64,000 bases of DNA from Candidatus Bathyarchaeota archaeon (GCA_963770935.1 CAVYRJ010000001.1:64001-128000); one strand, 5' to 3'; shown: positions 3,576-62,249, numbered from the stretch's first letter. The notes: generated from the letters alone by a model not told the origin. Numbers and translations: made by a program.

Positions 3576-5069
3576 GTGACAAATATGCGTGTTTGCCTAA
3601 TTAATCCACCTCGTATTCAACCGAGATTTTGGGGAAACCTCGGCATTCTTCAACCAATGGATATAGCGTATGTAGCAGCGCTTCTGGAAAAGGAACATGA
3701 GGTGCGCATCATAGATGCTGCTAACGAGGGATGGAAAAATTTTGAGCAAATTGATGAGACTAAATGTAGACAAGGATTAACAAATAAAGAAATAGCGGCT
3801 AGAATTAAGCAGATATCTCCAGATGTTGTTGGAATAACTATTTCATTCTCAGGTTGGTGGAGAACCGCTAATGAAGTTGCTGCAACAGTGAAAAACCTTG
3901 ACAAGGACATTATCACAGTTTTGAGCGGTTTACATCCATCTGCGAGACCTGTAGAGTGCCTTGAGCAGCCATACACTGATTTTGTCATAAGAGGAGAACC
4001 AGAATACACTACGATGGAGTTGATCCAAGCACTCGAACAGGAGAGCAAAGATTTCAAAAAAATCCGAGGAATCGGTTACAAGGAAAATGGAAAAACAATT
4101 ATCACGGAACTACGACCTCCAATTGAAGATTTGGATGCTTTGCCTTTTCCTGCTAGGCATTTGCTTCCCATGGAAACATACTTTGCCGCAGCAAAAGAAC
4201 TCCCGCCCAGAGGAGAGGTAACTAAACGTTGGACCACTTTGACAACTAGTAGGGGGTGCCCGTATAATTGCGTGTTTTGTTCAATTCACACTGTTATGAG
4301 CAGAAAATGGCGTGCAAGAAGCCCACAAAACGTTATTGGCGAATTAGAAGAGGTTGTTGAATCCTATCGAATTAAGCAGCTTGATATCGTTGATGAAAAC
4401 ATGACGCTTGACCCGAAAAGAATGGAGTCTATTTGTGATTTGATGGTGCAGCGGGGATTGGATGTTGAGTGGTTTGCTCCCAATGGAGTTAGGGCAGATA
4501 CATTGGATGAGGGTCTTTTGAGAAAAATGAAGGCGTCAGGCTGCAAGAAAATTCGTGTTGCTCCTGAGTCGGGCGTTCAACGAGTTGTTGACAACATTGT
4601 GAAGAAGAACTTGGATTTAAGATCTGTAGAAAAAGCGGTAATTCTGTCAAAAAAAGTCGGAATTAAAGTGGGCTGTTTCTTTGTTGTTGGCCTTATAGGG
4701 GAAACAAGGGAAGACATAGAGCAAACCATAGCCTTTGCTCAGAAGCTTAAGCGGCTGGGGGCTGATAGCTTCTACTTCAGCTATGCTACACCCGTTTATG
4801 GAACTGAACTCTACGAGCAGGCTAAACAGGGTGGCTTTCTGCGGGACTGTTTCAGTGACGACGCATTGGCTGAGGCTAAACCGCTCATTGAAACGCCTGA
4901 GTTGAGCGCGGATGAGATGGTTAAGTTGTGTGCGAGGGCAAATTTGGTTAATCCAACGTTTACTTATGATAGAATCATAAGGGCTATGCGGGACCCCAAA
5001 AAGGCAGCTAAAGGTCTATTGCGGGGTATCGCTAAAAAGAAGTTATTGCTCAAATACGCAAAGCAGTGA
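3576..5069 (+). CDS. B12-binding domain radical SAM protein
   Basis: N-terminal VCLINPP and SGLHPS cobalamin-binding domain; SRGCPYNCVFC (CxxxCxxC); ATPVYGT. Confidence 0.92.
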   Translation: MTNMRVCLINPPRIQPRFWGNLGILQPMDIAYVAALLEKEHEVRIIDAANEGWKNFEQIDETKCRQGLTNKEIAARIKQISPDVVGITISFSGWWRTANEVAATVKNLDKDIITVLSGLHPSARPVECLEQPYTDFVIRGEPEYTTMELIQALEQESKDFKKIRGIGYKENGKTIITELRPPIEDLDALPFPARHLLPMETYFAAAKELPPRGEVTKRWTTLTTSRGCPYNCVFCSIHTVMSRKWRARSPQNVIGELEEVVESYRIKQLDIVDENMTLDPKRMESICDLMVQRGLDVEWFAPNGVRADTLDEGLLRKMKASGCKKIRVAPESGVQRVVDNIVKKNLDLRSVEKAVILSKKVGIKVGCFFVVGLIGETREDIEQTIAFAQKLKRLGADSFYFSYATPVYGTELYEQAKQGGFLRDCFSDDALAEAKPLIETPELSADEMVKLCARANLVNPTFTYDRIIRAMRDPKKAAKGLLRGIAKKKLLLKYAKQ

Positions 5070-5086
5070 GTTGTTTATAGTTTCTG

Positions 5087-6115
5087 TTAAACTGGGAAGA
5101 AAAACCATCTCGTCACCAAGATAACGACGAAGCACAACAACATCCACAAAACAATGGTCACATCCCTAATCCGCAAGGCACCCAAAATCTTTTCCCCAGT
5201 TAACGGCTCTTGAGGGTCACCAAGAATGTATTGTCCAGGCTTCTCCAACTGAACCCGCAGTGCACCAGCAACAGCAGCCATTGGCCACCCGTGATTGCGG
5301 CTAGGAGTTTTTCTATGATCTCGATAAGCTATTCGCCAAGCGTTTTTGGCGTCCATTCGGAGGATAAACGCTGCTACAATCATCAATAATGCAGTTAATC
5401 TTGTGGGAATGTAATTGACGACGGTGTCAAGGTTCGCACTAAACCAGCCAGTGTTGATATGTTCTTTTGTTTTAAAGCCAACCATACCGTCAAGCGTGTT
5501 TATGGCTCGGAAAACTATGGCGCCTGTGACTCCGAAAAGGGCAAATGACATCATTGGTGAAAGTTTGAAGTCTATGAGGTTTTCTGACATGGATTCGATA
5601 ACTGCGCTGCTGATTTGGGAGCCGTTTAGGGTTCGGCTGTCTCTTCTGGAGAAGTGGCTGTATTTTTTGGCTTCATCTAGGTCGTTGGCTTGGATTGCTT
5701 TGGCGGCGGCTTTTGCCCAATCTGTCTCAAGCTTAATGCAAATAGTCATTTTGAGGATTATGATGCCGATGAAAGCGTAGATGAAAATGCCAAGGGAGAA
5801 CCAAGTAATATACGTGACAAATAACCATAAGCCAAAGAAGACGGGAAGCGCAAAAGCGGCAATCACCGTCAAACCCAACAGAACACCAAGGAACTTCTCT
5901 ACTTTTGGATTGGGATTCTTGAAGTAAGGTTCGATTTTCGCTGTAAAATTGCCCATCAACACGGTTGGGTGCAGCTTAAACACTAACCGATCAGGATTGT
6001 TCGGTGAAGGGTCGCCAAGAAACAAGTCTAAGACGACAGCCAAAACCAACATAATGGCGGCTACTATGATGTTTGTGGCGTTTTGCACCAACCACGGAGT
6101 AAGGGTGAGCAGCAT
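5087..6115 (-). CDS. cbiB: Adenosylcobinamide-phosphate synthase (CbiB/CobD family)
   Basis: Membrane protein with HPTVLMG, AVIESMSEN, RAINTLDGMVG and SRNHGWPMAAVAGAL motifs. Confidence 0.9.
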   Translation of the reverse strand: MLLTLTPWLVQNATNIIVAAIMLVLAVVLDLFLGDPSPNNPDRLVFKLHPTVLMGNFTAKIEPYFKNPNPKVEKFLGVLLGLTVIAAFALPVFFGLWLFVTYITWFSLGIFIYAFIGIIILKMTICIKLETDWAKAAAKAIQANDLDEAKKYSHFSRRDSRTLNGSQISSAVIESMSENLIDFKLSPMMSFALFGVTGAIVFRAINTLDGMVGFKTKEHINTGWFSANLDTVVNYIPTRLTALLMIVAAFILRMDAKNAWRIAYRDHRKTPSRNHGWPMAAVAGALRVQLEKPGQYILGDPQEPLTGEKILGALRIRDVTIVLWMLLCFVVILVTRWFFFPV

Positions 6116-6200
6116 TGTTTCGATACTTTGGAGACTCGCTTAATATTAATTACGGTAGCTCCCAAAAGAATGCCACTGTGGGAAAATATAGCTCCTTATC

Positions 6201-6995
6201 TTAAGGCGCCTTTTCCGCGTGTGTTTTATTCCACTCTTCGTTAAAGTAGCCTGTCGCTATTATCAAAACATGGGGGTTGTTTGACCATAAACTGGGCAGG
6301 ATGTTGTCTTGGCATACTTGCAGAGTAATCTGTTTGTTGTCAAATATGTGCATTCCAAATTGAATGGGATCATCTGTGTATTTTACTTGAAAAGAGGGTT
6401 TTTCTATAAGAGGTCCCCAGATTACATGGGGCAACTCATCTTCGGGGGGCTTTTGTGTGATTAATCGGATTTTTAGGTTTTTCTTTGTTTCGATCATGTT
6501 TTTGAGCAAGAGCCATTCGTTCTCAAATTTCATCGGAACCTTTATCGTAGGTAAAATAATATCTATGCTGTTTTGGCTTTTCTGAATGAGTTTTTGGTGT
6601 GTTTTAAGAAAGAGCGTTACTTCTGAAGTAATGATGTATTGTGCACTTTCAGAAGGACATGCGTTTTTTTTAACTATGGGAAAACAATCAAGCAATAAAT
6701 CTTTTTTCTTGACTAGATCGTTGTATTTTTGTTTTTTATTCTCAAGTAATATACAGAGCGCTTCGTTTATGGGCGTGGCTCTATACCGGGTTGGTTTGGC
6801 TATAATTTTTTCCACTAGCCCTATTTTCTCTAATGTTGGCATGATCCTGTAAATATCCTGTCGAGCTACATTGGTATCTTTTGCAAGTAGTTTTACATCT
6901 GCTTCATAAAATTTAACAAGGTTTAGGTATATTGTTGCCTGGAGCAAGCTAAGACCAAAATCCATAAGGAGATGTATACTTTCGCCCATATTCAT
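6201..6995 (-). CDS. TrmB-family transcriptional regulator
   Basis: N-terminal HTH (FGLSLLQATIYLNL...VARQDIYRIMPTLEKIGLV...PTRYRATP) plus C-terminal effector domain. Confidence 0.85.
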   Translation of the reverse strand: MNMGESIHLLMDFGLSLLQATIYLNLVKFYEADVKLLAKDTNVARQDIYRIMPTLEKIGLVEKIIAKPTRYRATPINEALCILLENKKQKYNDLVKKKDLLLDCFPIVKKNACPSESAQYIITSEVTLFLKTHQKLIQKSQNSIDIILPTIKVPMKFENEWLLLKNMIETKKNLKIRLITQKPPEDELPHVIWGPLIEKPSFQVKYTDDPIQFGMHIFDNKQITLQVCQDNILPSLWSNNPHVLIIATGYFNEEWNKTHAEKAP

Positions 6996-10456: not shown

Positions 10457-11353
10457 ATGTCCAGCGCTAAATCTAGTTATATGATTCGAACAGGATTATT
10501 TTTAACTGCTTTGTCTTGGTTCGCGTTTACGTTTTACGAGTTTGTTAATGCAATCACTCATGTTATCCAGCCCAACAGTGATAATCCGGTTTGGACTTGG
10601 CTGGTGCTTCAAGAAACCGGAGGAACCGTGGGTTTAGGCTTAAGAACAGCAGGCGGCTTAATCGCAGTTATAGCTTGCCTGTTCTATCTCGTAAAAAGGG
10701 ACCTCTCCGAACCAGAAGCTCTTATGGCACTTCGGCTGGTTGTAATCTTTGAAGCCTCATATTGGCTTTCCTTCCTCTTCTCTATAAGTCCTCGCGGCTT
10801 CACCAACATAAGCGCACTAATCGAGAACAACCTGCCAATTATCGTGCAGGCAACCGTTCTACCCATTGTTTTGATTATATTATTTTTCCACTTGACTCCA
10901 AAAAGGGCATCGACCGGCGGATTAAAGTGGGGGCTGATTTCAGGCATCGTTTACATTCTGGTCCTTTGGCTCAATAACGCGGGCAACTGGATAGCCGCAG
11001 CCATGATAAAAGGAATGGATTACTTAACACTGTACCCAGCGAACCTGTTTAGTTTCGGTTTAACCGTAGTCGGGTTGCTTTTGCTAGCTCTCTACACAGC
11101 GTATTTTACCAAGAAAACAATCGCAAAACACGACATCACACAATTAAACCTAAGAACAATAGGTTTCATCATCACTGCCTTCGGATTGTACTTTGACATA
11201 GTATACGTTATGTTCCTCTCTTTGGGAGCGGTTGGCGGCTGGGGAATGTGGTACGCTTGGTTTACGGGTCACAACTTGGACTTGTGGCTAATGGCACTTC
11301 CATTCGCGGGTCTCCCATTCCTTTTTCAAAATAAAAATGAAACCTCATCCTAA
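10457..11353 (+). CDS. Multi-pass membrane protein of unknown function
   Basis: 298 aa with about 8 hydrophobic segments. Confidence 0.75.
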   Translation: MSSAKSSYMIRTGLFLTALSWFAFTFYEFVNAITHVIQPNSDNPVWTWLVLQETGGTVGLGLRTAGGLIAVIACLFYLVKRDLSEPEALMALRLVVIFEASYWLSFLFSISPRGFTNISALIENNLPIIVQATVLPIVLIILFFHLTPKRASTGGLKWGLISGIVYILVLWLNNAGNWIAAAMIKGMDYLTLYPANLFSFGLTVVGLLLLALYTAYFTKKTIAKHDITQLNLRTIGFIITAFGLYFDIVYVMFLSLGAVGGWGMWYAWFTGHNLDLWLMALPFAGLPFLFQNKNETSS

Positions 11354-17305: not shown

Positions 17306-18115
17306 TTAAATTTGTCGTCTCCTTCGCATAAAAAATAGGTATCCTAGGGTTAATGCAGCTACAATTATCAGTCCAGATAGAATTGGATAGCCATATTCAA
17401 ATTGCAGAGCAGAATCTGGAGAGTTTTGTTGCTGAACCGGTTGACTAGTTAGTGATGAAACTGTTGGTTGAGTGGTCGGCTGACTTTTTGGTTCGGGAGT
17501 AGCAGATGGTTTAGGTGGTTGTGATAGGGGCGGTTTCTGGATGTTTTGAAGAGGGTCTAGTGCGACATAAGCTGCTTGCGGGTTAGGTTGACTCACATAA
17601 GTTGTGGTATCAACCGATATCACAGTAATCATGCTTATCCAAGACTCGCCATTGACTCCAGGAATTACCAAGCGAAGAGTCTCGTACAAGTCTGCTCCGT
17701 CTAACTCGTAAGCTATTATCACATCTTCCTGCGCAATGAAGTAGTTTGAGATGTATATGGAATAACCGTCTGAAGCATAAAACCTCAATGAAGCTGGGTT
17801 CTCAACTAACCCAGCCGCCTCAAGCAAAAGTCCAAGTTGTACACCACCCCAAAAGCCACCTTTAATAGATCGACCAAAACACAATAACTCAGCATCGACA
17901 ATTGTTTTTGGCATAGCCATAAGATCAGATAAAGATAGAGTAACACTATTGTTGGATGAAATCACTATTGTCAATGTTCCCGGTGAATTTGTACTTTTAA
18001 CGATATCAGCTTCGGAAATTTGAGCGGAACCGTAATTTATAGAACCTGAAAGAAGTAACTCCACAACTATTAGCAAGAAAACTAAATTTCTATTTTTCAA
18101 GGTAGCATCATCCAT
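17306..18115 (-). CDS. Secreted, C-terminally anchored molybdopterin-oxidoreductase (sulfite oxidase/MsrP-like) domain protein
   Basis: LSLSDLMAMP, LLCFG, WGGVQLGLLLEAAG, ASDGY, IIAYELDG and LRLVIPG; Pro/Thr/Gln linker, TM helix and RRRR tail. Confidence 0.7.
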   Translation of the reverse strand: MDDATLKNRNLVFLLIVVELLLSGSINYGSAQISEADIVKSTNSPGTLTIVISSNNSVTLSLSDLMAMPKTIVDAELLCFGRSIKGGFWGGVQLGLLLEAAGLVENPASLRFYASDGYSIYISNYFIAQEDVIIAYELDGADLYETLRLVIPGVNGESWISMITVISVDTTTYVSQPNPQAAYVALDPLQNIQKPPLSQPPKPSATPEPKSQPTTQPTVSSLTSQPVQQQNSPDSALQFEYGYPILSGLIIVAALTLGYLFFMRRRRQI

Positions 18116-22824: not shown

Positions 22825-22863
22825 ACAGTCACATTAAATTGCCTTTTAATTAACTTTAATGCT

Positions 22864-24304: not shown

Positions 24305-24544
24305 GTCCGAAGCCTTAACATGGTCCAATAGCTTCACCGTATATGAATTAAGCTAATATCGTTACTAACTAAAAATTGAACATTATTAATGTTCTCTAAA
24401 TAAACCATTAATCAATGAAATTCCTAGTTTTGCAATTTCAAAATATCATTTTCCCTAAGTTACAAGATAAAATCCAACGAGGCTTTAACTAAGATAAAAA
24501 CAAAAAAAGAAAGTAGAGATTTTTTTAGGTGTTTGTTTAGCTGT

Positions 24545-44074: not shown

Positions 44075-44530
44075 TTGACCGACAACGATAATAAAGAACT
44101 TGAAGGAATAACACTTTACGTCTACTTATACTGTGTCAAAAAAGGTAAGCCAGTGGGTCCCCGAGATGTTATGAAGGGTGCCAATCTAAGTAGCCCCAGC
44201 GTGGCTTATAGGCACCTGCAAAAACTCGAAGATTTGGGTTATTTGCAGAAAAACAAGTACGGCGAATACACACTCAAGAGCAGAGGGCATGTTAGGGGTT
44301 ACACATGGCTTGGTCGACGTTTAGTTGGGAAAATGTATCTCTACGCTCTTCTTTTTTCAGGTATTTTAGGTGTTGAACTCTTCGTTTTCTTTATGCATTT
44401 TTCGGTTGAAAACTATGAATTCAAAGTCTTTTTCTCCTTATTAATGCTAATAACTGGGTTGGCACTAGCTGTTTTCACTGCGGAAGGGCTACGGCAGAAC
44501 AAACGAAAGTTCATCGCCTCAATAGAATAG
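44075..44530 (+). CDS. Membrane-anchored winged-HTH regulator
   Basis: GPRDVMKGANLSSPSVAYRHLQKLEDLG followed by two TM helices. Confidence 0.75.
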   Translation: MTDNDNKELEGITLYVYLYCVKKGKPVGPRDVMKGANLSSPSVAYRHLQKLEDLGYLQKNKYGEYTLKSRGHVRGYTWLGRRLVGKMYLYALLFSGILGVELFVFFMHFSVENYEFKVFFSLLMLITGLALAVFTAEGLRQNKRKFIASIE

Positions 44531-48050: not shown

Positions 48051-48212
48051 GCAATCCCTTGTTGATTGTGTTGTTTGCAGGTTAAAATGGTTTCTCCAAA
48101 CCATCCTCACCAGCATTTAGTTGATGATTAGTTGCGTGCATTGTCGAAAGCCTTTTAAGAAAAACGGCGAGTTACTATGCCTATTACACGATTGAACGGA
48201 AGAGAAACTCCA

Positions 48213-49391
48213 ATGAAAAAAAACGGAAAATATTTGTTCACATCCGAATCAGTCGGAGAAGGTCACCCGGACAAAGTTGCAGACCAGATTTCCGACAGCG
48301 TTTTAGATGCAATATTCACCCATGATCCTAAAGCACGCGTAGACTGTGAAACCCTCGTCATGCAAGGAACCGTGGTTATTACGGGTCAAATAACCACCTG
48401 CTCCTACGTTAACATCCCAAAAATTGTCCGCCAAACACTCAAAGAAATTGGTTTTGACAATGCAAAGGATGGCTTGGACTGGGAAACATGCGGCGTTTTG
48501 GTTTCTTTAACTGAGCAATCCCCAGACATTTCTATGGGGGTAACCGAATCTAAAGGTCATGAGCAAGGTGCTGGAGACCAAGGAATGGTTTTCGGCTACG
48601 CAACTAACGAAACAAAAGAACTCATGCCACTACCCATCATGCTAGCACAAAAACTAGTTAAACGCTTGGCTGAATGCAGAAAAACAAAAATTATGCCCTA
48701 TCTACGCCCTGACTGCAAGTCTCAAGTAACCATCGAATACGAAAATGGCAAACCAAAATGCGTCAAAACTGTCGTTATCGCAGCGCAGAACAACGGAACT
48801 GTCGACGAGTCCACATTAAAGAAGGATATTGTTGAGAAAGTTATCAAACAAGTCATCCCAGCAAACATGCTAGCTGAATGACATAAAATATGTCATAAAC
48901 GGTACAGGCAGATTCGTTATCGGTGGAACATTAGCAGATTCAGGCTTAACTGGAAGAAAAATTATCGTTGACACATACGGTGGAGTTGGAAGCCACGGGG
49001 GCGGATGCTTCAGCGGTAAAGACCCTTCAAAGGTTGACCGTTCAGGTTGCTACATGGCAAGATACATTGCCAAAAACATTGTTGCATCAGGCTTAGCTGA
49101 CCAATGTGAAATTCAAATTTCCTATGCCATCGGCGTTGCGCAGCCAATCTCAGTGCTGGTCAACACTTACGAAACAGGCAAACTGTCAGACGAAAAAATC
49201 ATGGACTTGTATTGAAGTACTTTGACATGAGACCTAAAGCAATTATCGACCAATTAGATCTGCTAAGACCCATATACAAGAAAACAGCAGTCTTTGGCCA
49301 CTTTGGACGAGAAGACGCAGATTTCCCCTGGGAAAAAACTGACAAAGCTGAACAACTCAAAAAAGAGCTGGAAAAAACCAAAAAAGCATAA
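48213..49391 (+). CDS. metK: S-adenosylmethionine synthetase, bacterial/eukaryotic type (two frameshifts)
   Basis: [13 protein letters not shown] and GAGDQG; downstream frames give [25 protein letters not shown] and FGHFGR. Confidence 0.92.
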
Positions 49392-52196: not shown

Positions 52197-52385
52197 TACA
52201 GTGTTTGTCGTTTATGCACTATTTAAGTTTACCGTATGCATATAAAAGGGGGCAAAATATAAACATCTGTGCTGAAACTGAAAACAATGTTGAACAAACG
52301 GCAATTTGCCAAACAAAAAGGTTTTCACCAACTAAGTTTAAATGTCAAAAACAAAACTCATAATACCAAGCCGAGGCTCAACCAA

Positions 52386-53138
52386 ATGAAAATCAGCATA
52401 CTCCACATGAAAATACGCAACACCATAGAAGACAACCTAACAGCCACGAAAAACGCAGTCCTAAAAGCCGCCAAACAAAACCCAATCCTAATTGCCCTCC
52501 CCGAATACTTCACTGTTCCAAACTGCATGGCAGATTTCACCGATGCCAAAAAAATATCCCAAGAAACTTGTGCCAAAACGCTGAATTTTTTACAGGAAAT
52601 TTCCCAAAAAATCGGTTGGGTATACCTGCTAGGCGGAACTGTCTTGGAAGAAGACGGAGGTAAATACTACAACACCAGCACGCTCTGGAGAAACGGTAAA
52701 CTTCTAGCAAAATATAAGAAAATCAGTCCCATTAAAGCTGAGCTTGAGGCAGGTGTCGCTAAAGGATCTACTCCCATTGTGATAGACACAGAATTAGGCA
52801 AGCTTGGAATGATTGTGTGCGCCGACACCTTTAACCCCGAAGTCGTCGAGGGTATCGCCGCCTTGGGGGCAGAAATTGTCTCGTTGCCCGTGGCTGCGAT
52901 GGGAACCCATCCAACAGTTCAAGGTCACCCCCTAACAGTTGGGATTGCCCGAAACTTCGGTTTCTACATCCTTAAAGTTGGCAATGTATGTTCAAACATG
53001 AGGGGAGGCCGAAGCGCCATAATTGCGCCCTGGGGAATTCTCGGAGAAGTTACTGACTCACCAGAAGACTCTATTTTGAGCGCAGATTTAGATATGCAGA
53101 TGCTAAGAGACTACCGAGCACAACTCAGTAAATCTTAG
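52386..53138 (+). CDS. Carbon-nitrogen hydrolase (nitrilase superfamily)
   Basis: Catalytic triad in LPEY, KYKK and VCAD; GRSAIIAPWG. Confidence 0.88.
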   Translation: MKISILHMKIRNTIEDNLTATKNAVLKAAKQNPILIALPEYFTVPNCMADFTDAKKISQETCAKTLNFLQEISQKIGWVYLLGGTVLEEDGGKYYNTSTLWRNGKLLAKYKKISPIKAELEAGVAKGSTPIVIDTELGKLGMIVCADTFNPEVVEGIAALGAEIVSLPVAAMGTHPTVQGHPLTVGIARNFGFYILKVGNVCSNMRGGRSAIIAPWGILGEVTDSPEDSILSADLDMQMLRDYRAQLSKS

Positions 53139-54009
53139 CCCAAGATTCTACGATTCGATTCATTTCCTCAAACTCATATTGTGCAAGCCATTCTCTGAAG
53201 TCACTGTTCTGGACAGCAAACTTTGCAATTTGTTTTGCGTTCTCTGAATTATGTACGAGTAACAGTACTGCATCAATTTTGTGACGTGAAATGTAAGCCA
53301 CTGTTTTGAGAAGCGCATCGATTTTCTCGTCTGTTGGCATTTCAGCGCTGAGTTCTACAACAACGGGCTTCTTTAGTGTAGCAACGAAGTCGCGAACAAA
53401 CGTATCAACCCAGTAATTAGTCAAGTAATCCCTTGATGAGAGAGGCACATGGAAATAGTCAACCAGCTCAGCTATTGCGTTAAAATCTATCCCAAACCGC
53501 TCTTTAGCTAGGACAGGGTCAGGGAACATTTCAACCGCAAACACGCCTTTTGTGTGGGTTTTGGCCTCTTTGAGAAACTCGGTTATCGTTTGGGCGCGCC
53601 ATTTCGTCCAGTTTAAGCCACTTCTTTTTCTTTGCTCAGTACATCGGGGACATATGCAGTAATCTTCATCGGGAAAGTGGTAGAGGTTGAGTGTAACACC
53701 AGTGATGTCTTGTTTTGATATATTGTCAAGATAATTGAAGACTTTAGCTCGGTAGTCTGGGTGGGTGGGACAAACAAAGTCGAATGCTAAATTAGATTTC
53801 CTGTTCCTTCGCAGCGCAGGTCCACCTTTTGAGAGGGCAACGATGCTTGGGTCTTCGCGAATAGCTCTGGCATCACAAAAAACTGTAACATCATTCTGCA
53901 TTTCTTTTGCAGCTGGAAAAACTTGTCCGTCAACCCATTTTGAGAAAAAAACGTGTGGATCAAAGCCCTCAACTTTTTCAGGGGTGTATGTGACTAAGCC
54001 TATTTTCAT
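53125..54009 (-). CDS. Uncharacterised cytoplasmic protein with CxCPRC motif, probable TIM barrel (paralog A)
   Basis: FVCPTHPDYR, HFPDEDYCICPRC, WTKWRA and KERFGIDF. Confidence 0.7.
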   Translation of the reverse strand: MKIGLVTYTPEKVEGFDPHVFFSKWVDGQVFPAAKEMQNDVTVFCDARAIREDPSIVALSKGGPALRRNRKSNLAFDFVCPTHPDYRAKVFNYLDNISKQDITGVTLNLYHFPDEDYCICPRCTEQRKRSGLNWTKWRAQTITEFLKEAKTHTKGVFAVEMFPDPVLAKERFGIDFNAIAELVDYFHVPLSSRDYLTNYWVDTFVRDFVATLKKPVVVELSAEMPTDEKIDALLKTVAYISRHKIDAVLLLVHNSENAKQIAKFAVQNSDFREWLAQYEFEEMNRIVESWAKIY

Positions 54010-54068
54010 GCCCTATTCCTTCGCTCGCAACAAATATATTATTGGCGCTTATTTAATTGTTGATTCAA

Positions 54069-54287
54069 ATGGACAAACATAAAACCCCAATTACCATTGA
54101 TGCTACTAAATGTCCACCTTGCGCAGGGCAGGTTTGTATCGGTGTTTGTCCACAAGGCGCCCTTGAAGAGGGCAAAAACAGAAAGCCCCAAGTCATCTCA
54201 GTTGTCCAATGTACAAAATGTGGCGTATGTGTAAACCTGTGTCCAAATAAAGCCATCACTATAAATGTTAGCAACCCCAAAAAATAA
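54069..54287 (+). CDS. 2[4Fe-4S] ferredoxin
   Basis: CPPCAGQVCIGVCP and CTKCGVCVNLCP. Confidence 0.9.
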   Translation: MDKHKTPITIDATKCPPCAGQVCIGVCPQGALEEGKNRKPQVISVVQCTKCGVCVNLCPNKAITINVSNPKK

Positions 54288-54305: not shown

Positions 54306-55343
54306 TTGGAACAAATCGACCTTTCAGACAATGTTAAACTGATTGTAAAAGAGAATGTACTAGCCATTTTTTGTGATAGTGCTTTAAAGACAGTTAGCTC
54401 AGCAATATACAATGGCGGGACCAATCAGGTTAAAGCTGTCCTCAATGTAGGGGTGCCGGAAGGTTATAGCGACCTTTCCTTGCACCTTGACCCGCTAGAA
54501 CTAATCACTTCATCGGCGGCAAAGCTTGGATTAACCAAAGAATACCTTGCAATGGTTACAGCTGCAAAGGTCAAAAATTATAGTTTAGTCTCCAAAAAAA
54601 GCGACAAATTCTCAGTTCATGTAGCGGCTACCGCAGGTTGCTCACACGGCGAATCTTCAGGCGAAGAGATGGATGTTCAAGAAATCGTAGGCACCATCAA
54701 CATTATTGTCTTAATCGATGGGAACCCGTCGGAGAGTTGCATGATTGCTGCGTTAATCACTGCCACTGAAGCGAAGTCTGCGGTGATGAGGGATTTTGAT
54801 GTTCGAAGCCACTATACGGGGGACTCCGCGACGGGCTCGATAACTGACAGTGTCACAGTTGCATCGACATGTAGTGGTAAAACTTTGAGTTTGGCTGGTC
54901 CGGCTTCGAATCTTGGTAAGCTGGTAGGACAATGTGCGAGGCGGGCGGTTACGGAGGCATTGCTTAAACAGGAACCAATTTGGGCTTGCCGAACAGTATT
55001 GGACAGACTTAAGGAGAGGCATATTGGACTTGAAAAAATGGCATCAGAAATATCCAAAGTTGAAGGTTTAACAGTCGGTGTCGAAGAGTTGACCAAGATT
55101 TTGAGGAACAATAAGCTTGCTGGTTTTTACTTGCTTGCTGCCGCGAAGATGGATGACGATTACAAGAAGAATTTGTTACCAAAAGACTTTACAAATTGGA
55201 CAGAGGTAAGCAAATGCTTTGGTACTTATACCCGACTCATGCGCAATTGTTCTAAGATGCCAAACTACGACTTTGTCGATTTGCCCCCGTTCCTAAAGCA
55301 TACATTAATCAAAATTGTCAAGAGTTCTCAATCTGAGCATTAA
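54306..55343 (+). CDS. cbiZ: Adenosylcobinamide amidohydrolase CbiZ with C-terminal extension
   Basis: SSAIYNGG, MVTAA, ATAG, GTINII, TATEAKS and ATGSITD. Confidence 0.85.
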   Translation: MEQIDLSDNVKLIVKENVLAIFCDSALKTVSSAIYNGGTNQVKAVLNVGVPEGYSDLSLHLDPLELITSSAAKLGLTKEYLAMVTAAKVKNYSLVSKKSDKFSVHVAATAGCSHGESSGEEMDVQEIVGTINIIVLIDGNPSESCMIAALITATEAKSAVMRDFDVRSHYTGDSATGSITDSVTVASTCSGKTLSLAGPASNLGKLVGQCARRAVTEALLKQEPIWACRTVLDRLKERHIGLEKMASEISKVEGLTVGVEELTKILRNNKLAGFYLLAAAKMDDDYKKNLLPKDFTNWTEVSKCFGTYTRLMRNCSKMPNYDFVDLPPFLKHTLIKIVKSSQSEH

Positions 55344-55412: not shown

Positions 55413-56315
55413 TTGAAATTTGGCGTATTTCTCTATCAACCAGAGCCTGTTGAAGGTGTCGATTACAACTTCTACCGTCAAAAATCAGAATCTGGAATCG
55501 TTGGAAAACCAAATCCAAAAATGTACACTAACATCGCTGTCTTTGGCGATAATAACATGGCCGCGAAACGCCCAGATTGGGTATCCGTAAGCTCATACGG
55601 TCCAGCGCTCCGAACAAACAAACGCTTCAACCTCCGCTGGGACGTTGTATGTATGACTAACCCAGAAGCTAGAGAATACAACTTAAAAATCATCGCTGAA
55701 ACTGCTAAAGTAACTCCGGGCATCAGTATCAGCAGCCAACACTTTGCAGATCAGCATTTCTGTACTTGCCCAAGATGTATAGAGCAGCAACGTAAAAGCG
55801 GCTTAAAGTGGGTTGACTGGCGGGCGAAAGTTGTCACTGACTTCCTTGCTGAAGTTAAAGAAATAGTCTCCGGCAAACCACTCTTTGTCAACTGCCTCCC
55901 TGACCCATTAATGGGCAAGGAACGCTTCGGCTATGACTTTGAAGCCATGGCACAGTACGCTGACTACTTTGTAATCCCAATGTTCAGCAAAGCATACCCA
56001 ACCCCATGGTACTGGGAAACCATCGCAAGAGGCTATAAGAGCTTCCTAAAGAAGCCCGTCTTTGTAAACTTCTACGTCCGCGGACCAAACGAAACCTGGG
56101 ACACCGTTGCACCAACAAAACAAATCATGACAGTCGCAACACGTGTTGCACGCCAAGGCGTCGATGGCATCATCTTTCTGGCAGAAAAAGCCGAATACAT
56201 ACAAAAGTTCCAGAAAGAAGCAGCTGCAGACAAAGAAACCCGTGAGTTCCTCAAAGACCACGGCGGCGACGACGTCTTAGAACTCTTCAACCGCTGGGAA
56301 AAACTCTACAAATAG
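55413..56315 (+). CDS. Uncharacterised cytoplasmic protein with CxCPRC motif, probable TIM barrel (paralog B)
   Basis: VVCMTNPEAR, HFADQHFCTCPRC, WVDWRA and KERFGYDF. Confidence 0.7.
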   Translation: MKFGVFLYQPEPVEGVDYNFYRQKSESGIVGKPNPKMYTNIAVFGDNNMAAKRPDWVSVSSYGPALRTNKRFNLRWDVVCMTNPEAREYNLKIIAETAKVTPGISISSQHFADQHFCTCPRCIEQQRKSGLKWVDWRAKVVTDFLAEVKEIVSGKPLFVNCLPDPLMGKERFGYDFEAMAQYADYFVIPMFSKAYPTPWYWETIARGYKSFLKKPVFVNFYVRGPNETWDTVAPTKQIMTVATRVARQGVDGIIFLAEKAEYIQKFQKEAAADKETREFLKDHGGDDVLELFNRWEKLYK

Positions 56316-57610: not shown

Positions 57611-58996
57611 TTGAAGGTTACTCTAGTCAATCCACCTTATCCATCAAATGCACATTCACATCCACCATTCATACCGTTGGGACTAGCATACCTTGGAGCA
57701 GTCGCCGAAAAAGCAGGCCATCAAGTTAGCATAATCGATTGCCAAGCAGAAAAACTATCCTACGACACTTTCCGACAAAGAATCGCAAAGGTTCCATCCG
57801 ACATTGTCGGCGTAACTTCCACCACACTTCTTTATAATTCAGCCAAAAAAATAATGGAAACCGCCAAGGAAGAACACCCAAAAGCCGTCAACATGATTGG
57901 CGGAAGCCATGTAAGCTTTTGGGACGAGAATGCCCTCAACGAATGCCCAAGCATAGATATTGTTGTGAGACGTGAAGGCGAATTTACATTTCTTGAGTTG
58001 CTGCAACGTATAGAAGCAGAAAAGAACTTTAATGGAGTCTTAGGTACAACATTCCGAGCAAGCGATAAGAAAATCCTTCGCAACGAAGACAGACCATTCC
58101 TACAAGACTTGGATTCTCTTCCTTCCCCAGCGTACCATTTGCTTCCTCTAAACGCATTCCGCCGTATGGGCAAAACCATCTTTCCCTTAGTTACTAGCCG
58201 TGGATGCGTTCAATGGTGTGACTTCTGCAGCACAGTACGCATGTTCGGCAGAGGCTACCGTGTACGAAACCCCAAATACGTGATAGACGAAATGGAAATG
58301 CTCCACAACAAGTACGGCGAAAGCCAATTCACATTCTACGACGACGCATTTACGGTAAATCGCCAGCACGTACTGAAAATGTGCGAGGACATCAAAACCC
58401 GCAAACTCAAAGTCACTTGGGACTGCGAAACACGGGTCGATATGGTTGACAAAGAACTGTTATCGGCAATGTATGATGCAGGATGCATAACTGTATGGTT
58501 CGGCGTAGAATCTGGCTCAGAGAAAATGCTCTGCCAAATGAATAAAAAAATAAAGCTAGAGGAAACACGCTCAGCTTTCAAGATAGCCCAGAAAGTGGGT
58601 TTGATGACTATTGCCAGTGCAGTCATAGGCTTCCCCGGCGAAACTGAAGAAACCGCTTGGGAAACGATCAACTTCATAAACTCCCTGAACCCCGACGACA
58701 TAGGCTTCTATGTAGCAACACCCTACCCTGGAACGCCAATGTATGAGGAAGTAATCAAAAACGGCTGGTTGCGAATAACCGACTTCAACAAATACGACAC
58801 AGCAACCCCAACTTTCGAGACACCATACCTGAGCATGGAAAGAATCCGTGAAATCAAGTACAAAGCTCACCAGAAGTTTTACCTACGCCCAAGCTACGTG
58901 TTCAAGATGATGCGAAAAGGCGGAACCTACGGCCGGTCTGGATTGAAAACGTCTGCGGCCTATGCACTCAGAGCCATGCACATAAAACTCTCCTAA
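57611..58996 (+). CDS. B12-binding radical SAM protein (tandem copy 1)
   Basis: NPPYP, PLGLAYLGA and SRGCVQWCDFC. Confidence 0.92.
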   Translation: MKVTLVNPPYPSNAHSHPPFIPLGLAYLGAVAEKAGHQVSIIDCQAEKLSYDTFRQRIAKVPSDIVGVTSTTLLYNSAKKIMETAKEEHPKAVNMIGGSHVSFWDENALNECPSIDIVVRREGEFTFLELLQRIEAEKNFNGVLGTTFRASDKKILRNEDRPFLQDLDSLPSPAYHLLPLNAFRRMGKTIFPLVTSRGCVQWCDFCSTVRMFGRGYRVRNPKYVIDEMEMLHNKYGESQFTFYDDAFTVNRQHVLKMCEDIKTRKLKVTWDCETRVDMVDKELLSAMYDAGCITVWFGVESGSEKMLCQMNKKIKLEETRSAFKIAQKVGLMTIASAVIGFPGETEETAWETINFINSLNPDDIGFYVATPYPGTPMYEEVIKNGWLRITDFNKYDTATPTFETPYLSMERIREIKYKAHQKFYLRPSYVFKMMRKGGTYGRSGLKTSAAYALRAMHIKLS

Positions 58997-59094: not shown

Positions 59095-60477
59095 ATGAAA
59101 ATTACACTAGTTAATCCCCCTTATCCACCAAGCGTACATTCACATCCACCCTTTATCCCATTGGGCTTGGCATATTTGGGAGCAGTTGCAGAGAAAGCAG
59201 GCTACCAAGTCAAAGTTATTGATTGCCAGGCAGAAAAACTGACCTGCGAAACCTTCGGAGACCGCATCGCCCAAACGCCGTCTGACTTTATCGGGGTAAC
59301 AGCGACAACGCTACTCTACAAGTCCGCCATGAAGCTAATCACGATAGCTAAAAAGGCTCATCCACAAGCTGTCACGGTGCTCGGTGGATCACATGGAACT
59401 TTCTGGGACGAAAACGCCCTCAAAGAATATCCAAGCCTAGATATTGTCGTGCGAAGAGAAGGCGAATTAACTTTCATTGAACTCCTCGAAAAACTTCAGA
59501 ATAAAGGCAGCCTCAGCAACTTACTAGGCATCACCTACCGAAACGGCGACAAAACCATCCGAAATCCAGACAGACCCTTTATAGAAAACTTGGACCAACT
59601 GCCTTTTCCTGCGCATCATCTGCTGCCTCTTGAAAATTTAAAGCACAATGGTAAAATCCTGTTCCCCTTAGTCAGCAGTCGCGGATGTGTCTATTGGTGT
59701 GATTTCTGCAGCACAGTACGCATGTTCGGCAGAGGCTACCGAATGCGGAGTCCTAAAAACGTTGTAGACGAAATGCAGCTTGTACACGACAAATACGGCG
59801 TTGAACAAGTTACATTTTACGATGACGCATTTACTGTTGACCGCACTCGAGTGATGAAAATCTGCGAGGAGTTGCAATATAGAAAACTGCATATGATCTG
59901 GGATTGCGGTACCCGCGTGGATATGGTGGATCGTGAACTGATGAAAACTATGCATGCAGCGGGTTGCTTTGCGGTTTGGTTAGGTGTGGAGTCTGGTTCT
60001 GAAGCCATCCTTGGAGCGATGAACAAAAGTATCAAGCTGGATCAGACAAGAAAGGCATATAAAACGGCCCATGATGTAGGGTTGATGACGATTGCGAACG
60101 TCGTTTTAGGTTTTCCCGGGGAAACAGAAAAGACAGCTCGTGAAACCATCCGTTTCGTTAAAGAGTTGAACCCTGACGATGTGGGATTCTACATAGCTAC
60201 GCCTTATCCGGGCACACCAATGTACGAGGAAGTAAAGAAAAACGGTTGGCTAAAGACCACAGACTTTGATAAATATGATACTGCTGGTCCAACTTTTGAG
60301 ACACCCTCTTTGAGCATGGAGAAACTTACTAAACTCCGGTACAAAGCATATCAAGACTTTTACCTGAGGCCAAGCTATGTCCTAAGAATGATGCGTAGAG
60401 GAGGAACCTACGGCAGGGCAGCGGTTAAAACTTCAGGCGCTTATCTGCTCAGGTCGTTGCACGTTAAACTTTCGTAG
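59095..60477 (+). CDS. B12-binding radical SAM protein (tandem copy 2)
   Basis: NPPYP, PLGLAYLGA and SRGCVYWCDFC; close paralog of copy 1. Confidence 0.92.
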   Translation: MKITLVNPPYPPSVHSHPPFIPLGLAYLGAVAEKAGYQVKVIDCQAEKLTCETFGDRIAQTPSDFIGVTATTLLYKSAMKLITIAKKAHPQAVTVLGGSHGTFWDENALKEYPSLDIVVRREGELTFIELLEKLQNKGSLSNLLGITYRNGDKTIRNPDRPFIENLDQLPFPAHHLLPLENLKHNGKILFPLVSSRGCVYWCDFCSTVRMFGRGYRMRSPKNVVDEMQLVHDKYGVEQVTFYDDAFTVDRTRVMKICEELQYRKLHMIWDCGTRVDMVDRELMKTMHAAGCFAVWLGVESGSEAILGAMNKSIKLDQTRKAYKTAHDVGLMTIANVVLGFPGETEKTARETIRFVKELNPDDVGFYIATPYPGTPMYEEVKKNGWLKTTDFDKYDTAGPTFETPSLSMEKLTKLRYKAYQDFYLRPSYVLRMMRRGGTYGRAAVKTSGAYLLRSLHVKLS

Positions 60478-60843: not shown

Positions 60844-60892
60844 ATTTTAGCCTTCAAAAATTTAAACAAATAAAAAATAAAGGAAGAAAATT

Positions 60893-61804
60893 TTACATAA
60901 AAGCCTTGTAGATCGGGTGAGTTTCTTCTAGTGGTCTAGTTCCAAGGTCGCCTGCTGCAGATGCGATGTATGTGTCGGTTACTGCGACGGCTGGGAATAC
61001 CCATTCAGCTTGTTCGGCTGGTCCAATCATAAGCCAGTTTGCGCCTGCGACTTGCATGATTGCGTTGGTTGCGGTTCTACATCCTGGGCGGAATTCTTTT
61101 GCAACGTTTGCTTTTACCCAACCCATGGTTGTGACAACGTTTCCGCTGCCTAATCCTGTAGGGTGACCATACTTTTCTTTCATTATGGGTATGGTTCTAA
61201 CTGCAGTTCCCATGTCTGGGGCAAACGCAGGGATAGCTGTGTCGACTAGGGGCTTTGTGATTCCACCTTTTTCAGCTAACGCTAAGGCTTCAACAATGAC
61301 CTTCATTTTGCCTTCAAGGGTGGTATCTTTTGGGTCGTCAGCAAGCACAATTGACATTTTAATGCCACTGTCTTTTAGGACGGCTAATTCAGCATCGGTT
61401 ACGCCTTTGTAAACTGAGTTGTAGAAGCATCGGTCTGAAAGACCCATCTTTTTTGCCATGGTTGCTGCTGCCATGCGCGTCTTTGGGCTCATAGCGTCAA
61501 GCATTAGTGGTGCGTCACTGTGTTTTGAGACAAAGTCAATGTACTTCTCGAATGCCAGTTCAGTAGTTCCTACAATGTCAAAACCGAACGGGACACCTGT
61601 AATATCGCTTTGAGTGTGCATTGTGTTAATGATTTGTTCTGCAACGGCAGCATCAAAAATTCCTTTATTTGCATCCGAAACCATTTTTTGGCCTAGCCAA
61701 AAGATTGAGCCAATCAAGAATGTAGGTAATTCTCCCGGTTGACCGCCTACTTTGACTTTTGCTATTTCGTAAACTTTTTGATTCGTGTTGAATTTAAAGG
61801 ACAT
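60893..61804 (-). CDS. mtrH: MtrH-family methyl-corrinoid:pterin methyltransferase, stand-alone
   Basis: KVGGQPGELPTFLIGSIF, GIFD, YNSV and GHPTGLGSGN. Confidence 0.88.
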   Translation of the reverse strand: MSFKFNTNQKVYEIAKVKVGGQPGELPTFLIGSIFWLGQKMVSDANKGIFDAAVAEQIINTMHTQSDITGVPFGFDIVGTTELAFEKYIDFVSKHSDAPLMLDAMSPKTRMAAATMAKKMGLSDRCFYNSVYKGVTDAELAVLKDSGIKMSIVLADDPKDTTLEGKMKVIVEALALAEKGGITKPLVDTAIPAFAPDMGTAVRTIPIMKEKYGHPTGLGSGNVVTTMGWVKANVAKEFRPGCRTATNAIMQVAGANWLMIGPAEQAEWVFPAVAVTDTYIASAAGDLGTRPLEETHPIYKAFM

Positions 61805-61823
61805 TGTTCCACTTCAGAATTGA

Positions 61824-62249
61824 TTATTTCTTCAATGCTTTCTTTGCAAGCTCTGGAGCTTCTTCTTTGTTCTTGCCGAAGAGTGCGCCGATTGCATCAG
61901 CGTCTTCTTTCTTAACTGCTGCGCCACCCATAATTATGCCGACTTTGTCTTTTAATCCTGCTGCTTTGAGTAATTCGTCGAGTTTTGCAATGTTGTTCTT
62001 TGCTGGAACTGTATTGACTGAAATTGCAATCAAGTTTGCATTGTTTTCTTTTGCTTTGTCAACGAAGACTTGTGGTGCAACACTCTTTCCGACGTCAATG
62101 GTTTTGAATCCTGCTCGTTTTAGTGACCTGCGGACTGCTTCTTTTGCAGTGTCATGCATGTCTGGTTCGATGTTTCCGATAACAACTATGCCGATTGGAT
62201 TCTCTGGTTCTGGAGGCTCTTTTTCCATCATAGATTTAAGCCAAGACAT
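61824..62249 (-). CDS. Stand-alone corrinoid (B12-binding Rossmann domain) protein
   Basis: DMHDTAK (variant of DxHxxGK), GFKTIDVG and IIMGGA; 141 aa with no cap domain. Confidence 0.82.
   Translation of the reverse strand: MSWLKSMMEKEPPEPENPIGIVVIGNIEPDMHDTAKEAVRRSLKRAGFKTIDVGKSVAPQVFVDKAKENNANLIAISVNTVPAKNNIAKLDELLKAAGLKDKVGIIMGGAAVKKEDADAIGALFGKNKEEAPELAKKALKK

Follow-up and report, generated by a model that had tools for sequence, protein, structure and literature searches.

An uncharacterised radical SAM-rich gene cluster and its propeller neighbour in Bathyarchaeia

The stretch of DNA considered here, referred to throughout as the window, is 64,000 nucleotides of Candidatus Bathyarchaeota archaeon (GCA_963770935.1, CAVYRJ010000001.1:64001-128000) and forms positions 64001-128000 of contig C1 in the 1.98-Mb genome (18 contigs, 91% complete) of a Bathyarchaeia archaeon. 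It carries a conserved gene island rich in radical S-adenosylmethionine (SAM) enzymes and is also home to a number of exported beta-propeller proteins. The conserved core of the island comprises four old clades of B12-binding radical SAM (B12-rSAM) enzymes, two AhbD/NirJ-like SPASM enzymes, one HemN/ChuW-like enzyme, a metal amidohydrolase and a class I methyltransferase, together with CbiB, CbiZ and a ferredoxin, an RnfD(-C)-like module with a small membrane partner, TrmB regulators and a single propeller, P6, which is transcribed divergently from a SPASM gene. The other six propellers, the KRPs, are found in the same genera as the island but are not physically tied to it. The explanation that best accounts for these observations as a whole is that of a lineage-specific Bathyarchaeia island, inherited as a unit, whose enzymes work in series on one scaffold, a reading that is about evenly poised between being right and being wrong.

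A first-pass annotation of the window had taken ten radical SAM genes and seven exported propeller genes to be a possible system with its own cobamide, SAM and electron supply. What stands of this idea is a conserved B12 and radical SAM island with one propeller partner, and what does not is the membership of all seven propellers. The inventory itself was accurate. A Pfam scan of the 51 open reading frames (ORFs) of the window places PF04055 (Radical_SAM) above cut-off in 10 genes, seven of which also have PF02310 (B12-binding), the others being two SPASM genes and one HemN-like gene, and finds PQQ_2 in seven ORFs, all on the minus strand and with signal or anchor helices seen. The scan exactly matches the gene order that had been given for 22.8-40.3 kb, and cbiB, cbiZ, metK, a ferredoxin, rnfC/D-like genes and an MtrH gene with a corrinoid protein are all present in the window.

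Bathyarchaeia are among the most abundant archaea of anoxic sediments, peat and soils, and their handling of lignin-type matter is unsettled. With the island, a published gene count becomes a defined and testable unit, made up of a co-inherited island of about 15 families, a SPASM-propeller pair and a pattern of presence and absence that separates six genera from their nearest relatives. Two readings are also corrected, in that the propellers as PQQ dehydrogenases are unsupported and that metK and rnfCD are not dedicated supply lines.

Conservation of the island

The linkage of the radical SAM genes that had been proposed for the window is kept in other genomes, both in six of the same genus and in further genera and a second family. 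The same order of about 35 genes recurs in the six same-genus genomes, starting with a B12-rSAM gene, a methyltransferase, none to about four KRPs, a further B12-rSAM gene, a TrmB regulator, CbiB, B12_1, the amidohydrolase, another B12-rSAM gene and P6, which lies back to back with SPASM1. The order continues from SPASM1 through a second double propeller, where there is one, to B12_6, a KRP or none, the HemN-like gene, a five-helix membrane protein, RnfC/D, a TrmB regulator and SPASM2. There follows a housekeeping block (GPN, DUF4443, RidA, MetK and M48), then an Asn-synthase-like gene and a CN-hydrolase, a DUF4015-like gene and the ferredoxin with CbiZ, and the order ends with a further DUF4015 gene, B12_9/10, MtrH with its corrinoid protein and two STT3-like genes.

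Four further genera of the family, and the second family, have the genes in a rearranged order, with about 15 of the same gene families still within about 40 kb. The rearranged set includes three to seven B12-rSAM genes, SPASM, HemN-like, P6, the amidohydrolase, CbiB, RnfD, the five-helix protein, the methyltransferase, CbiZ and MtrH with the corrinoid protein; the housekeeping block is not part of it. B12_1 adjoins CbiB in both families, and the second family has in addition a CobQ/CbiA-like amidotransferase, two more class I methyltransferases, an Fe-S aldo-keto reductase and a glycosyltransferase.

The propeller that travels with these genes is P6 (30559..32943, minus strand; PQQ_2 246 bits), which has an N-terminal membrane anchor and two PQQ-like (BamB-like) beta-propellers and which is a single-copy, conserved member of the island. 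Its neighbourhood was examined in 80 related P6 loci in public genomes, 72 of which have at least 1.5 kb of upstream DNA. The divergent neighbour within 1.2 kb is a SPASM gene in 47 of the 72, with 3 more at 1.2-2.2 kb, whilst a B12-rSAM gene lies directly upstream in 11 and the rest are mostly second copies of P6 elsewhere in a genome. Within 8 kb of P6 there is a B12-rSAM gene at 61 of the 80 loci, a SPASM gene at 62, the amidohydrolase at 41, the HemN-like gene at 33, CbiB at 30 and a KRP at 15. The linkage claimed for the propellers therefore holds for P6, which is a propeller of another type, and fails for the six KRPs, which in addition to being near P6 at so few loci are most closely related to dispersed copies in the same genome.

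All but one of the 80 P6 loci come from records titled as Bathyarchaeia, Bathyarchaeota or unnamed archaea, including ones titled Bathyarchaeum tardum, MCG-6 and a Bathy6 metagenome-assembled genome. A locus of the second-family type (L113) is in a record titled Bathyarchaeum tardum, which is cultivated, and so expression, cofactor chemistry and protein modification are open to study in culture. One locus (L114) is filed as Candidatus Sulfotelmatobacter sp. and has the archaeal arrangement of P6, SPASM, amidohydrolase, CbiB and B12-rSAM genes; it is probably a mis-binned Bathyarchaeia contig.

Distribution of the island and of the KRPs

The presence of the genes was followed in an evenly drawn sample of the order, consisting of 81 genomes from 46 genera. 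Matches to the SPASM1 orthologue, the HemN-like enzyme and the KRPs are each found in 21 genomes and to P6 in 20, with the one P6 miss falling in an 89%-complete genome in 240 contigs. The genera that carry SPASM1, the HemN-like gene, KRPs and P6 are identical, five being in the window's family and one in the second family, and there is no match in the remaining 60 of the 81 genomes, in which the first family is represented by four further genera and the second by three. Co-variation of propellers with radical SAM genes, which had been put forward as a check, is thus seen for P6 and for the KRPs, both of which share the pattern of SPASM1 and the HemN-like gene. In a class-wide sample of 201 genomes from 87 genera the KRPs are found in 27 genomes, which are from the same genera with the addition of one fragmented genome of another family. 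This last genome (G205; 550 contigs, 5% contamination) has KRP fragments on C434, C523 and C62 and no P6 or SPASM1 orthologue, and is a counter-example of low weight that reflects either contamination or transfer of KRPs without the island.

Shared ancestry could produce such a pattern in the absence of any single system, if radical SAM paralogues, B12 housekeeping genes and inserted surface-protein genes were chance neighbours and their distribution mirrored a larger accessory genome. Island-bearing genomes are larger (1.5-3.0 Mb vs 1.0-2.1 Mb), the set is limited to six genera in two families, the families differ in gene order, and in the window's genus housekeeping genes (GPN, RidA, MetK and M48) sit inside the block. 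Mere neighbourhood would not, however, be expected to leave about 15 gene families within about 40 kb after rearrangement between families, nor to keep the divergent P6-SPASM pair at 47 of 72 loci, and the block has dedicated TrmB-type regulators that are conserved within it. The B12-rSAM genes are also strongly clustered, with six of the 12 loci in the genome (seven of 13 genes) lying in this 3.2% of its length where 0.39 would be expected (binomial P 8.8e-7). That no single system underlies the region is very unlikely. For the KRPs five of 32 loci (six genes) are in the window against 1.03 expected, and the P value of 0.003 is a generous one as four of the copies form one tandem array and the independent count is about three.

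Radical SAM enzymes

The seven B12-rSAM genes all have the class B architecture, with PF02310 and PF04055 above cut-off in each. They are B12_1 (3576..5069, plus strand), which is convergent with cbiB; B12_2 (23054..24337, minus), which falls in one clade with B12_6; B12_3 (27454..28799, minus), which is in two pieces through one frameshift and is 53-60% identical to an intact relative of 443 aa; B12_4 (29214..30516, plus), also in two pieces through a frameshift; B12_6 (34405..35808, plus), 50 bp downstream of SPASM1; and B12_9 (57611..58996, plus) and B12_10 (59095..60477, plus). The CxxxCxxC motif is present in six of the seven, B12_1 and all the other intact enzymes included, and was not seen in the frameshift-split B12_4. 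SPASM1 (33281..34354, plus) is separated from the divergent P6 by a gap of 337 bp and is 45% identical to SPASM2 (44648..45754, plus). The HemN-like gene (39036..40331, plus) has PF04055 with HemN_C and is of the class C type, its motif reading CDSKCAFCYF; it is missing the fourth Cys after CxxxCxxC, which we take to be typical of HemN.

In a tree built from 53 B12-rSAM sequences the enzymes fall into four clades that are deep and well supported, B12_1, B12_3, B12_2/4/6 and B12_9/10, each of which spans both families. As each clade contains both families, the enzymes can be regarded as old, separately conserved paralogues, as would be expected for distinct steps of one pathway. The 67% identity of B12_9 and B12_10 points to a recent duplication as well. 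Relatives of the B12-rSAM enzymes are more broadly distributed than the island, with 6-19 matches in same-genus genomes and with 1-4 in nine of 12 genomes from other families, the other three having none.

None of the radical SAM enzymes in the window reaches the curated cut-off by which any NCBIfam family is judged, and thus the possibility raised in the first-pass annotation that they would prove to be known housekeeping enzymes has not materialised. The best match of B12_1 is 217 bits against a cut-off of 575. For the B12 enzymes BchE is best, at no more than 267.7 bits against 481, and is the top family for four of them, with HpnJ (sugar chemistry), ApyD (peptide) and P-methylases scoring nearly as high; the models of HpnJ, HpnR, ApyD, PhpK, BzaD, the glutamine C-methyltransferase of methyl-coenzyme M reductase (MCR), TIGR04072 and others are all missed by a wider margin than BchE. 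For the SPASM enzymes AhbD ranks first, followed by TIGR04053 and NirJ-type families. The scores of SPASM1 and SPASM2 are 223.6 and 204.5 bits for AhbD (cut-off 500), 142 and 148 for AhbC (650) and 157 and 150 for NirJ (515). The HemN-like enzyme scores 187 against 400 for ChuW/HutW, 153 against 205 for HemW and 129 against 325 for HemN.

Relatives of solved structure are also distant. They are AprD4, an aminoglycoside enzyme and the nearest, then TsrM, OxsB, CysS and TokK for B12_6; PqqE, which is the best, SkfB and the anaerobic sulfatase-maturating enzyme (anSME) for SPASM1; and HemN and NocN for the HemN-like enzyme. Named homologues of SPASM1 are almost all from Bathyarchaeota.

The known enzymes that these proteins most resemble are the radical SAM enzymes of anaerobic tetrapyrrole metabolism (AhbC/AhbD and NirJ; HemN, HemW and ChuW; BchE, BchQ and BchR), which are the best curated families for all three types in the window, have an equal domain layout and length and, like the island enzymes, go with corrinoid gene neighbours and SPASM enzymes that have no peptide-recognition domain. 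They differ in that the window's scores are mostly about half of the cut-off or less (AhbD 224/500, NirJ 157/515, ChuW 187/400, BchE at most 268/481), and no tetrapyrrole pathway is known to use as many as seven class B enzymes.

The propellers

P6 and the KRPs are only distantly related, with just 24-26% identity over about 150 residues. The six KRPs, P1 to P5 and P7, share 28-55% identity with each other and a layout of a signal peptide, an N-terminal Ig-like part, a weak propeller (PQQ_2 29-54 bits), a C-terminal Ig-like domain and an anchor helix. All have PQQ_2 matches. P1 (7132..9561) has a propeller at 49 bits, Big_3_5 and a transmembrane helix at both ends, and its nearest relative is a dispersed copy in the same genome at C3:28433. 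P2 (11524..14043) and P3 (14287..17046) follow; by sequence P3 does not match any solved structure at E 0.01, and its named homologues are all from Bathyarchaeota. P4 (18302..21029) has its PQQ_2 ORF at 18302-20689 and an N-terminal piece with the signal peptide in another frame, P5 (24545..27253) is in two pieces with the PQQ_2 ORF at 24545-26644, and P7 (36046..38634) has the PQQ_2 ORF at 36046-38592, the C-terminal anchor in another frame and no N-terminal signal in the main frame. Two further genes lie inside the KRP array, one for a six-helix membrane protein (10457..11353, plus strand; detected by hydropathy and with no Pfam or NCBIfam match) and the other for an exported, C-terminally anchored protein with transmembrane helices and a molybdopterin-oxidoreductase domain (17306..18115, minus; PF00174 44 bits), a pairing reminiscent of MsrP/MsrQ-type repair of extracytoplasmic proteins.

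The KRP family is a large one, with about 33 genes in the genome and its 32 loci spread over 13 of the 18 contigs, and the mapped island regions of the six same-genus genomes contain from none to about four. In a tree of 49 KRP sequences the six of the window cluster with copies dispersed over their own genome and with flank copies from a single other genus, and not with the copies that are linked to the island in other genomes. In the second family, too, the copy beside the island clusters with dispersed ones of its own genome. As the dispersed copies are from three genomes only (G000, the genome of the window, G035 and G064), the tree is compatible with an ancestral island-linked KRP, and an apparent clade of island KRPs from G001, G003, G004 and G012 may be a mere species-group clade. 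Judged by the tree and by their varying number, the six KRPs of the window are variable, recently copied guests and not conserved parts of the island. A second double canonical PQQ-like propeller is found inside the operon from SPASM1 to B12_6 in many same-genus genomes, although the genome of the window is without it.

As PQQ-repeat Pfam proteins adjoin SPASM1, for which PqqE is the best solved match, the locus has some likeness to the biosynthesis of PQQ (PqqA-E) with its PQQ dehydrogenases. The likeness does not extend further, as PqqE is matched by SPASM1 and SPASM2 at 118 and 126 bits against a cut-off of 381, PqqC (PF03070) was not found in the 91%-complete genome, and PqqD (PF05402) is absent from the window, its sole match in the genome being at 20.8 bits, below cut-off, and inside a SPASM-like ORF on another contig. 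The curated PQQ alcohol dehydrogenase model TIGR03075 is matched by P6 at 138 bits against 480 and by none of the six KRPs. A profile built from 44 P6 orthologues gives 139-159 bits to natural archaeal cell-surface propellers and BamB but no more than 75 to PQQ dehydrogenases, and also matches designed proteins that were derived from archaeal cell-surface propellers. The identification of P6 and the KRPs as PQQ-dependent dehydrogenases is therefore not supported.

The proximity of a gene for a cytoplasmic SPASM enzyme to that of an exported protein does bring to mind a different possibility, namely that the SPASM and B12 enzymes act ahead of Sec export and modify either the propellers themselves (P6 and its paralogue, with the KRPs as further candidates) or a small peptide that has escaped notice. 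Parallels exist in anSME and the sulfatases, in QhpD and quinohemoprotein amine dehydrogenase, which has a propeller subunit, and in Mmp10 and the glutamine C-methyltransferase with MCR. Maturation of this kind would suit the divergent pairing of P6 with SPASM at 47 of 72 loci, the second propeller between SPASM1 and B12_6 and the single phyletic pattern of the island genes and the KRP family, and SPASM1 does weakly match anSME and PqqE, whilst ApyD (148-250 bits) and the MCR glutamine methylase (94-139 bits) are among the below-cut-off matches of the B12 enzymes. The SPASM enzymes of the window, however, open directly with the radical SAM domain and have no N-terminal peptide-recognition domain, peptide maturases fall 60-90 bits under AhbD/NirJ for them, and the anSME model, which has a cut-off of 349, is matched at 79 bits. 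The window is without a PqqD-type gene, a sulfatase domain or a small gamma-subunit gene, and no obvious precursor peptide is found among 220 small intergenic ORFs, of which those that are conserved are the ferredoxin, zinc-ribbon or C2H2-like proteins, a DUF1616 piece and fragments of frameshifted genes. The conserved Cys residues of P6 also fall in the ordinary repeat motif. Maturation of the propellers by the island is, on balance, fairly unlikely.

A possible pathway on one scaffold

If the enzymes of the island do act in series on one scaffold, then the class B and class C enzymes would carry out radical C-methylations of it and the SPASM enzymes and the amidohydrolase would provide side-chain chemistry on the same scaffold. 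The reducing power would be drawn from the ferredoxin and the RnfC-D module, and the cobamide from CbiZ/CbiB salvage. P6 could then be the partner outside the cytoplasm, where it would receive, hold or sense the product or its precursor. The scaffold may be a tetrapyrrole or corrinoid-type cofactor, which is a tentative guess and more probably wrong than right; it is made because tetrapyrrole families (AhbD/NirJ, ChuW/HemW/HemN and BchE) rank first, albeit below cut-off, for all three enzyme types, and because a peptide-recognition domain is missing from the SPASM enzymes and the conserved neighbours include corrinoid genes.

A number of points weigh against a single pathway of this kind. No enzyme reaches an NCBIfam cut-off, so that the guess at a substrate draws on weak similarity, and HpnJ, ApyD and P-methylases come close to BchE, with AprD4 the nearest solved structure to B12_6. 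Genes for de novo tetrapyrrole and cobalamin synthesis are on contig C14 and not beside the island. P6 lies outside the cytoplasm, in which radical SAM enzymes operate, and none of the findings connects the two. The conserved neighbours also include genes of glycosylation, namely two STT3-like genes, glycosyltransferases and DUF4015/GHL10-like genes. With six carrier genera in two families the independent lineages number two at the least, and perhaps only two, and the counts of co-distribution come from related genomes.

It is possible to go further and to see the island as the dedicated maker of a new cofactor, either a heavily C-methylated one derived from a corrinoid or tetrapyrrole or one derived from a peptide, that is used outside the cell by P6 and, through P6, by the roughly 30 KRPs. 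This bolder proposal is distinctly unlikely. Were it true, these Bathyarchaeia would possess an apparatus outside the cell for redox chemistry on lignin and humic matter or for binding them, and the joint gain and loss of the island, P6 and the KRP family would be explained.

Cobamide, SAM and electron supply

The suggestion of a built-in salvage of cobamide is supported, with cbiB, cbiZ and the ferredoxin being conserved neighbours in the island. CbiB, adenosylcobinamide-phosphate synthase (5087..6115, minus strand; PF03186 247.8 bits), and CbiZ, adenosylcobinamide amidohydrolase (54306..55343, plus; PF01955 159 bits), are both above their Pfam cut-offs, and directly upstream of cbiZ is a 2x[4Fe-4S] ferredoxin of 76 aa (54057..54287, plus), the ORF of which is conserved in the loci of eight relatives. 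The pair is that of archaeal CbiZ/CbiB cobinamide salvage, conserved here beside radical SAM genes, and differs from the known system in being embedded among B12-dependent radical SAM genes, where it may either supply the enzymes or deliver their substrate. A cultivated relative has been reported to be without cobalamin synthesis (PMC10477458, main text). Genes for CobS, CobY and CobT and an ECF transporter of the Cbi (cobalt) type are found 32-46 kb upstream of the window.

In the same upstream region CobS occurs twice in company with a MobA-like nucleotidyltransferase, at about 21200-23700 (L147:17205-19692) and at 29260-32570 (L148:5259-8571) of G000:C1. The two genes are fused in one copy, which is beside a CobT-like gene, and adjacent in the other, which adjoins a UbiA prenyltransferase, a sugar epimerase and a further radical SAM gene. 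It may be that the second set serves something other than cobamide assembly.

The idea that metK is a dedicated source of SAM has not been borne out. MetK (48140..49352, plus; in four frame pieces) is a SAM synthetase of the bacterial type, and as no archaeal-type synthetase (PF01941) was found in the 91%-complete genome it is probably the sole SAM synthetase of the cell; in other genera metK is outside the regions that were fetched around the island, and the gene is regarded as adjoining the island without belonging to it.

The same is true of rnfDC as an Rnf complex or a dedicated electron supply. An Rnf complex requires six subunits, RnfA-E and RnfG, and the window has only RnfC and RnfD types, RnfA/E (the Rnf-Nqr family) not having been found in the 91%-complete genome. 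By Pfam there is an RnfC-like protein with FMN and 2x[4Fe-4S] domains (41370..42668, minus) and an RnfD-like membrane protein (42665..43847, minus; in two frames), and neighbourhoods and hydropathy add a Bathyarchaeota-specific five-helix membrane protein (40509..41168, minus) that always comes after RnfD. The latter has an atlas score of 0.86 to ECF transporter S components, which is a weak lead only. In relatives that have no RnfC, an RnfD-like protein with a C-terminal 2x[4Fe-4S] domain is followed by the five-helix protein (L002:3912-5306 in G003; L052:13216-14544 in G035). Together with the five-helix protein, this RnfD-ferredoxin fusion looks like a minimal membrane redox module, unlike the six-subunit Rnf complex.

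Lignin metabolism and published gene counts

The expansion of both gene families in Bathy-6, and a link between them, are already in print. The text of PMC11697101 (ISME Commun 2024) reports Bathy-6 genomes with 24-46 Sec-exported PQQ-domain genes, 7-20 B12-radical SAM genes of COG1032 and a PqqE-like SPASM gene, and proposes that both families work together in lignin metabolism. That set is alike in gene families, in class of organism and in architecture (Sec signal, PQQ-like domain and Ig-like domains), and one of the P6 loci (L122) bears the Bathy6 label. It is unlike the present one in that the text, figures and most supplements aside, counts genes without a conserved island, a P6-SPASM pair or a shared phyletic pattern, and it names the propellers PQQ-dependent dehydrogenases, which the curated models used here do not support. 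No description of the conserved island, the pair or the shared pattern was found in the visible text of the literature, although a map may exist in figures or supplements beyond it. The main texts of the Bathyarchaeum tardum paper (PMC10477458) and of a paper on O-demethylases (PMC10989822) do not contain the words 'propeller', 'radical SAM' or 'PQQ'. The island is thus an uncharacterised radical SAM-rich tailoring cluster, partly anticipated in print.

The published idea can be carried over to the island, with the radical SAM enzymes transforming lignin or humic aromatics that are bound or oxidised by the surface propellers. The reported gene numbers come from lignocellulose-fed habitats, and PQQ-domain proteins were found in proteomes (PMC11697101, in its text). 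A gene for a methyl-corrinoid methyltransferase of the MtrH/MtgA type (60893..61804, minus strand) and one for a small corrinoid (B12-binding) protein (61824..62249, minus; Pfam/NCBIfam scan) are conserved neighbours of the island and would correspond to the second half of a system for O-demethylation of methoxy-aromatics as given in the main text of PMC10989822, and a cultivated relative is described as growing on methoxylated aromatics (PMC10477458, main text). The methyltransferase is well above cut-off for Pfam MtrH, at 262.6 bits, and just below that of the NCBIfam mtrH model (265.9 vs 271.4). The Pfam scan of the window, however, gave no gene for an O-demethylase partner of the MtgB type, the curated model does not recognise the propellers as PQQ dehydrogenases and PqqC is missing from the genes found in the genome. 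Radical SAM enzymes of classes B and C are, with few exceptions, known from biosynthetic pathways, and the cost of SAM at each turnover would make them expensive for bulk catabolism. Four old, separately conserved clades would also suit a fixed pathway more than a flexible catabolic toolkit, and direct involvement of the island in breaking down aromatics is probably not its role, being about as unlikely as maturation of the propellers.

Envelope genes

The surroundings of the island are rich in genes that may alter the cell envelope. After the pair of MtrH and corrinoid protein there are two long STT3-like membrane proteins, at 62358-63999 of the window and at G000:C1:128795-131101 (L150:795-3101). 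A further STT3 gene is present upstream (G000:C1:41460-43765), which makes three oligosaccharyltransferase-like genes within about 90 kb. The upstream flank also has glycosyltransferases, an epimerase, a UbiA prenyltransferase, DUF1616 and, just left of the window, an Fe-S aldo-keto reductase. Two glycosyl-hydrolase-like genes are within the island, one DUF4015/GHL10-like (53125..54009, minus strand), which has no Pfam match and an atlas score of 0.98 to DUF4015 clusters, and the other DUF4015-like by the Pfam scan (55413..56315, plus).

It might then be assumed that the target of the island is some glycan, lipid carrier or membrane lipid with which the heavily glycosylated surface propellers are decorated or anchored. 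The two STT3-like paralogues are kept in this position in all six same-genus genomes and in other genera, and KRPs and P6 have 1.0-1.5 sequons (N-x-S/T) per 100 residues, a density two to three times the genome median of 0.45. AprD4 and HpnJ, which modify sugars, are among the nearest known relatives of the B12 enzymes. The model for lipid-type B12-rSAM enzymes, TIGR04072, is not reached by any of the window's enzymes (at most 154 bits vs 360), and tailoring of the envelope would leave the conserved CbiB/CbiZ and the AhbD/NirJ-like genes unexplained. It is, like the new-cofactor proposal, an improbable account of the island, and somewhat more so than maturation or catabolism.

State of the assembly

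Nine genes of the window are split by frameshifts, these being B12_3, B12_4, the amidohydrolase, RnfD, MetK, M48, P4, P5 and P7, and among the split stretches are 21252-22824, 27454-28799, 29214-30516, 36046-38634, 42665-43847, 48140-49352 and 50049-51093. MetK has three changes of frame and yet is 93-97% identical in amino acids to an intact relative over its three main pieces, the short first piece of 28 residues being 75% identical to the same relative, and the amidohydrolase, RnfD, B12_3 and M48 are similarly split yet highly identical to intact relatives. Several of the breaks adjoin A/T runs. At position 36160, which is in P7, one base is missing from the contigs of three out of four other public runs, and the usual C-terminal membrane anchor of P7 is readable in a different frame. 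The splits are, on this sequence evidence, probably assembly indels rather than decay of the genes. Pseudogenisation as their main cause was rejected in view of the identity of MetK and of the base that is missing at 36160 in three of the four runs. Given the high identity of split genes to intact relatives, the gene calls and pseudogene counts of this genome need care. Frameshift-split genes are also seen on other contigs, for example at C4:139844-142287 and C14:83537-84919.

One of the public runs (X20) is an RNA library and held 7% of the sampled words, though its source library may contain DNA. Portions of P5, P7, the HemN-like gene and RnfC are covered by its contigs, which at 90-99% identity are those of a related strain and are uninformative on co-expression, as is the lack of cover elsewhere.

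Other genes of the island and its flanks

The island is bordered by the class I methyltransferase (3..599, minus strand; Methyltransf_11), of which the window has the C-terminal part, the gene running off its end. Orthologues are 58-67% identical in the same genus and 50-62% in the other family. Two regulators are present, one of the TrmB family (6201..6995, minus; PF01978) and a small TrmB-like one upstream of SPASM2 (44075..44530, plus), which was recognised by Pfam and by its neighbourhood. The metal amidohydrolase (21252..22824, minus; Amidohydro_3) is a conserved member of the island that is in three frames here and intact at 525-541 aa in relatives. Identified by Pfam, an Asn-synthase-like PP-loop amidotransferase (51198-52277, minus) and a CN-hydrolase (52269-53138, plus) are divergently transcribed, and the pair is kept beside the island in both families.

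No RNA family was found by an Rfam scan of the window, and hence no cobalamin riboswitch, and the window contains no tRNA genes. About 12 kb upstream of the window the N- and C-terminal domains of a large terminase are found in two adjacent ORFs (G000:C1 at about 50880-52330; L149:6879-8334), which probably represent the remnant of a prophage.

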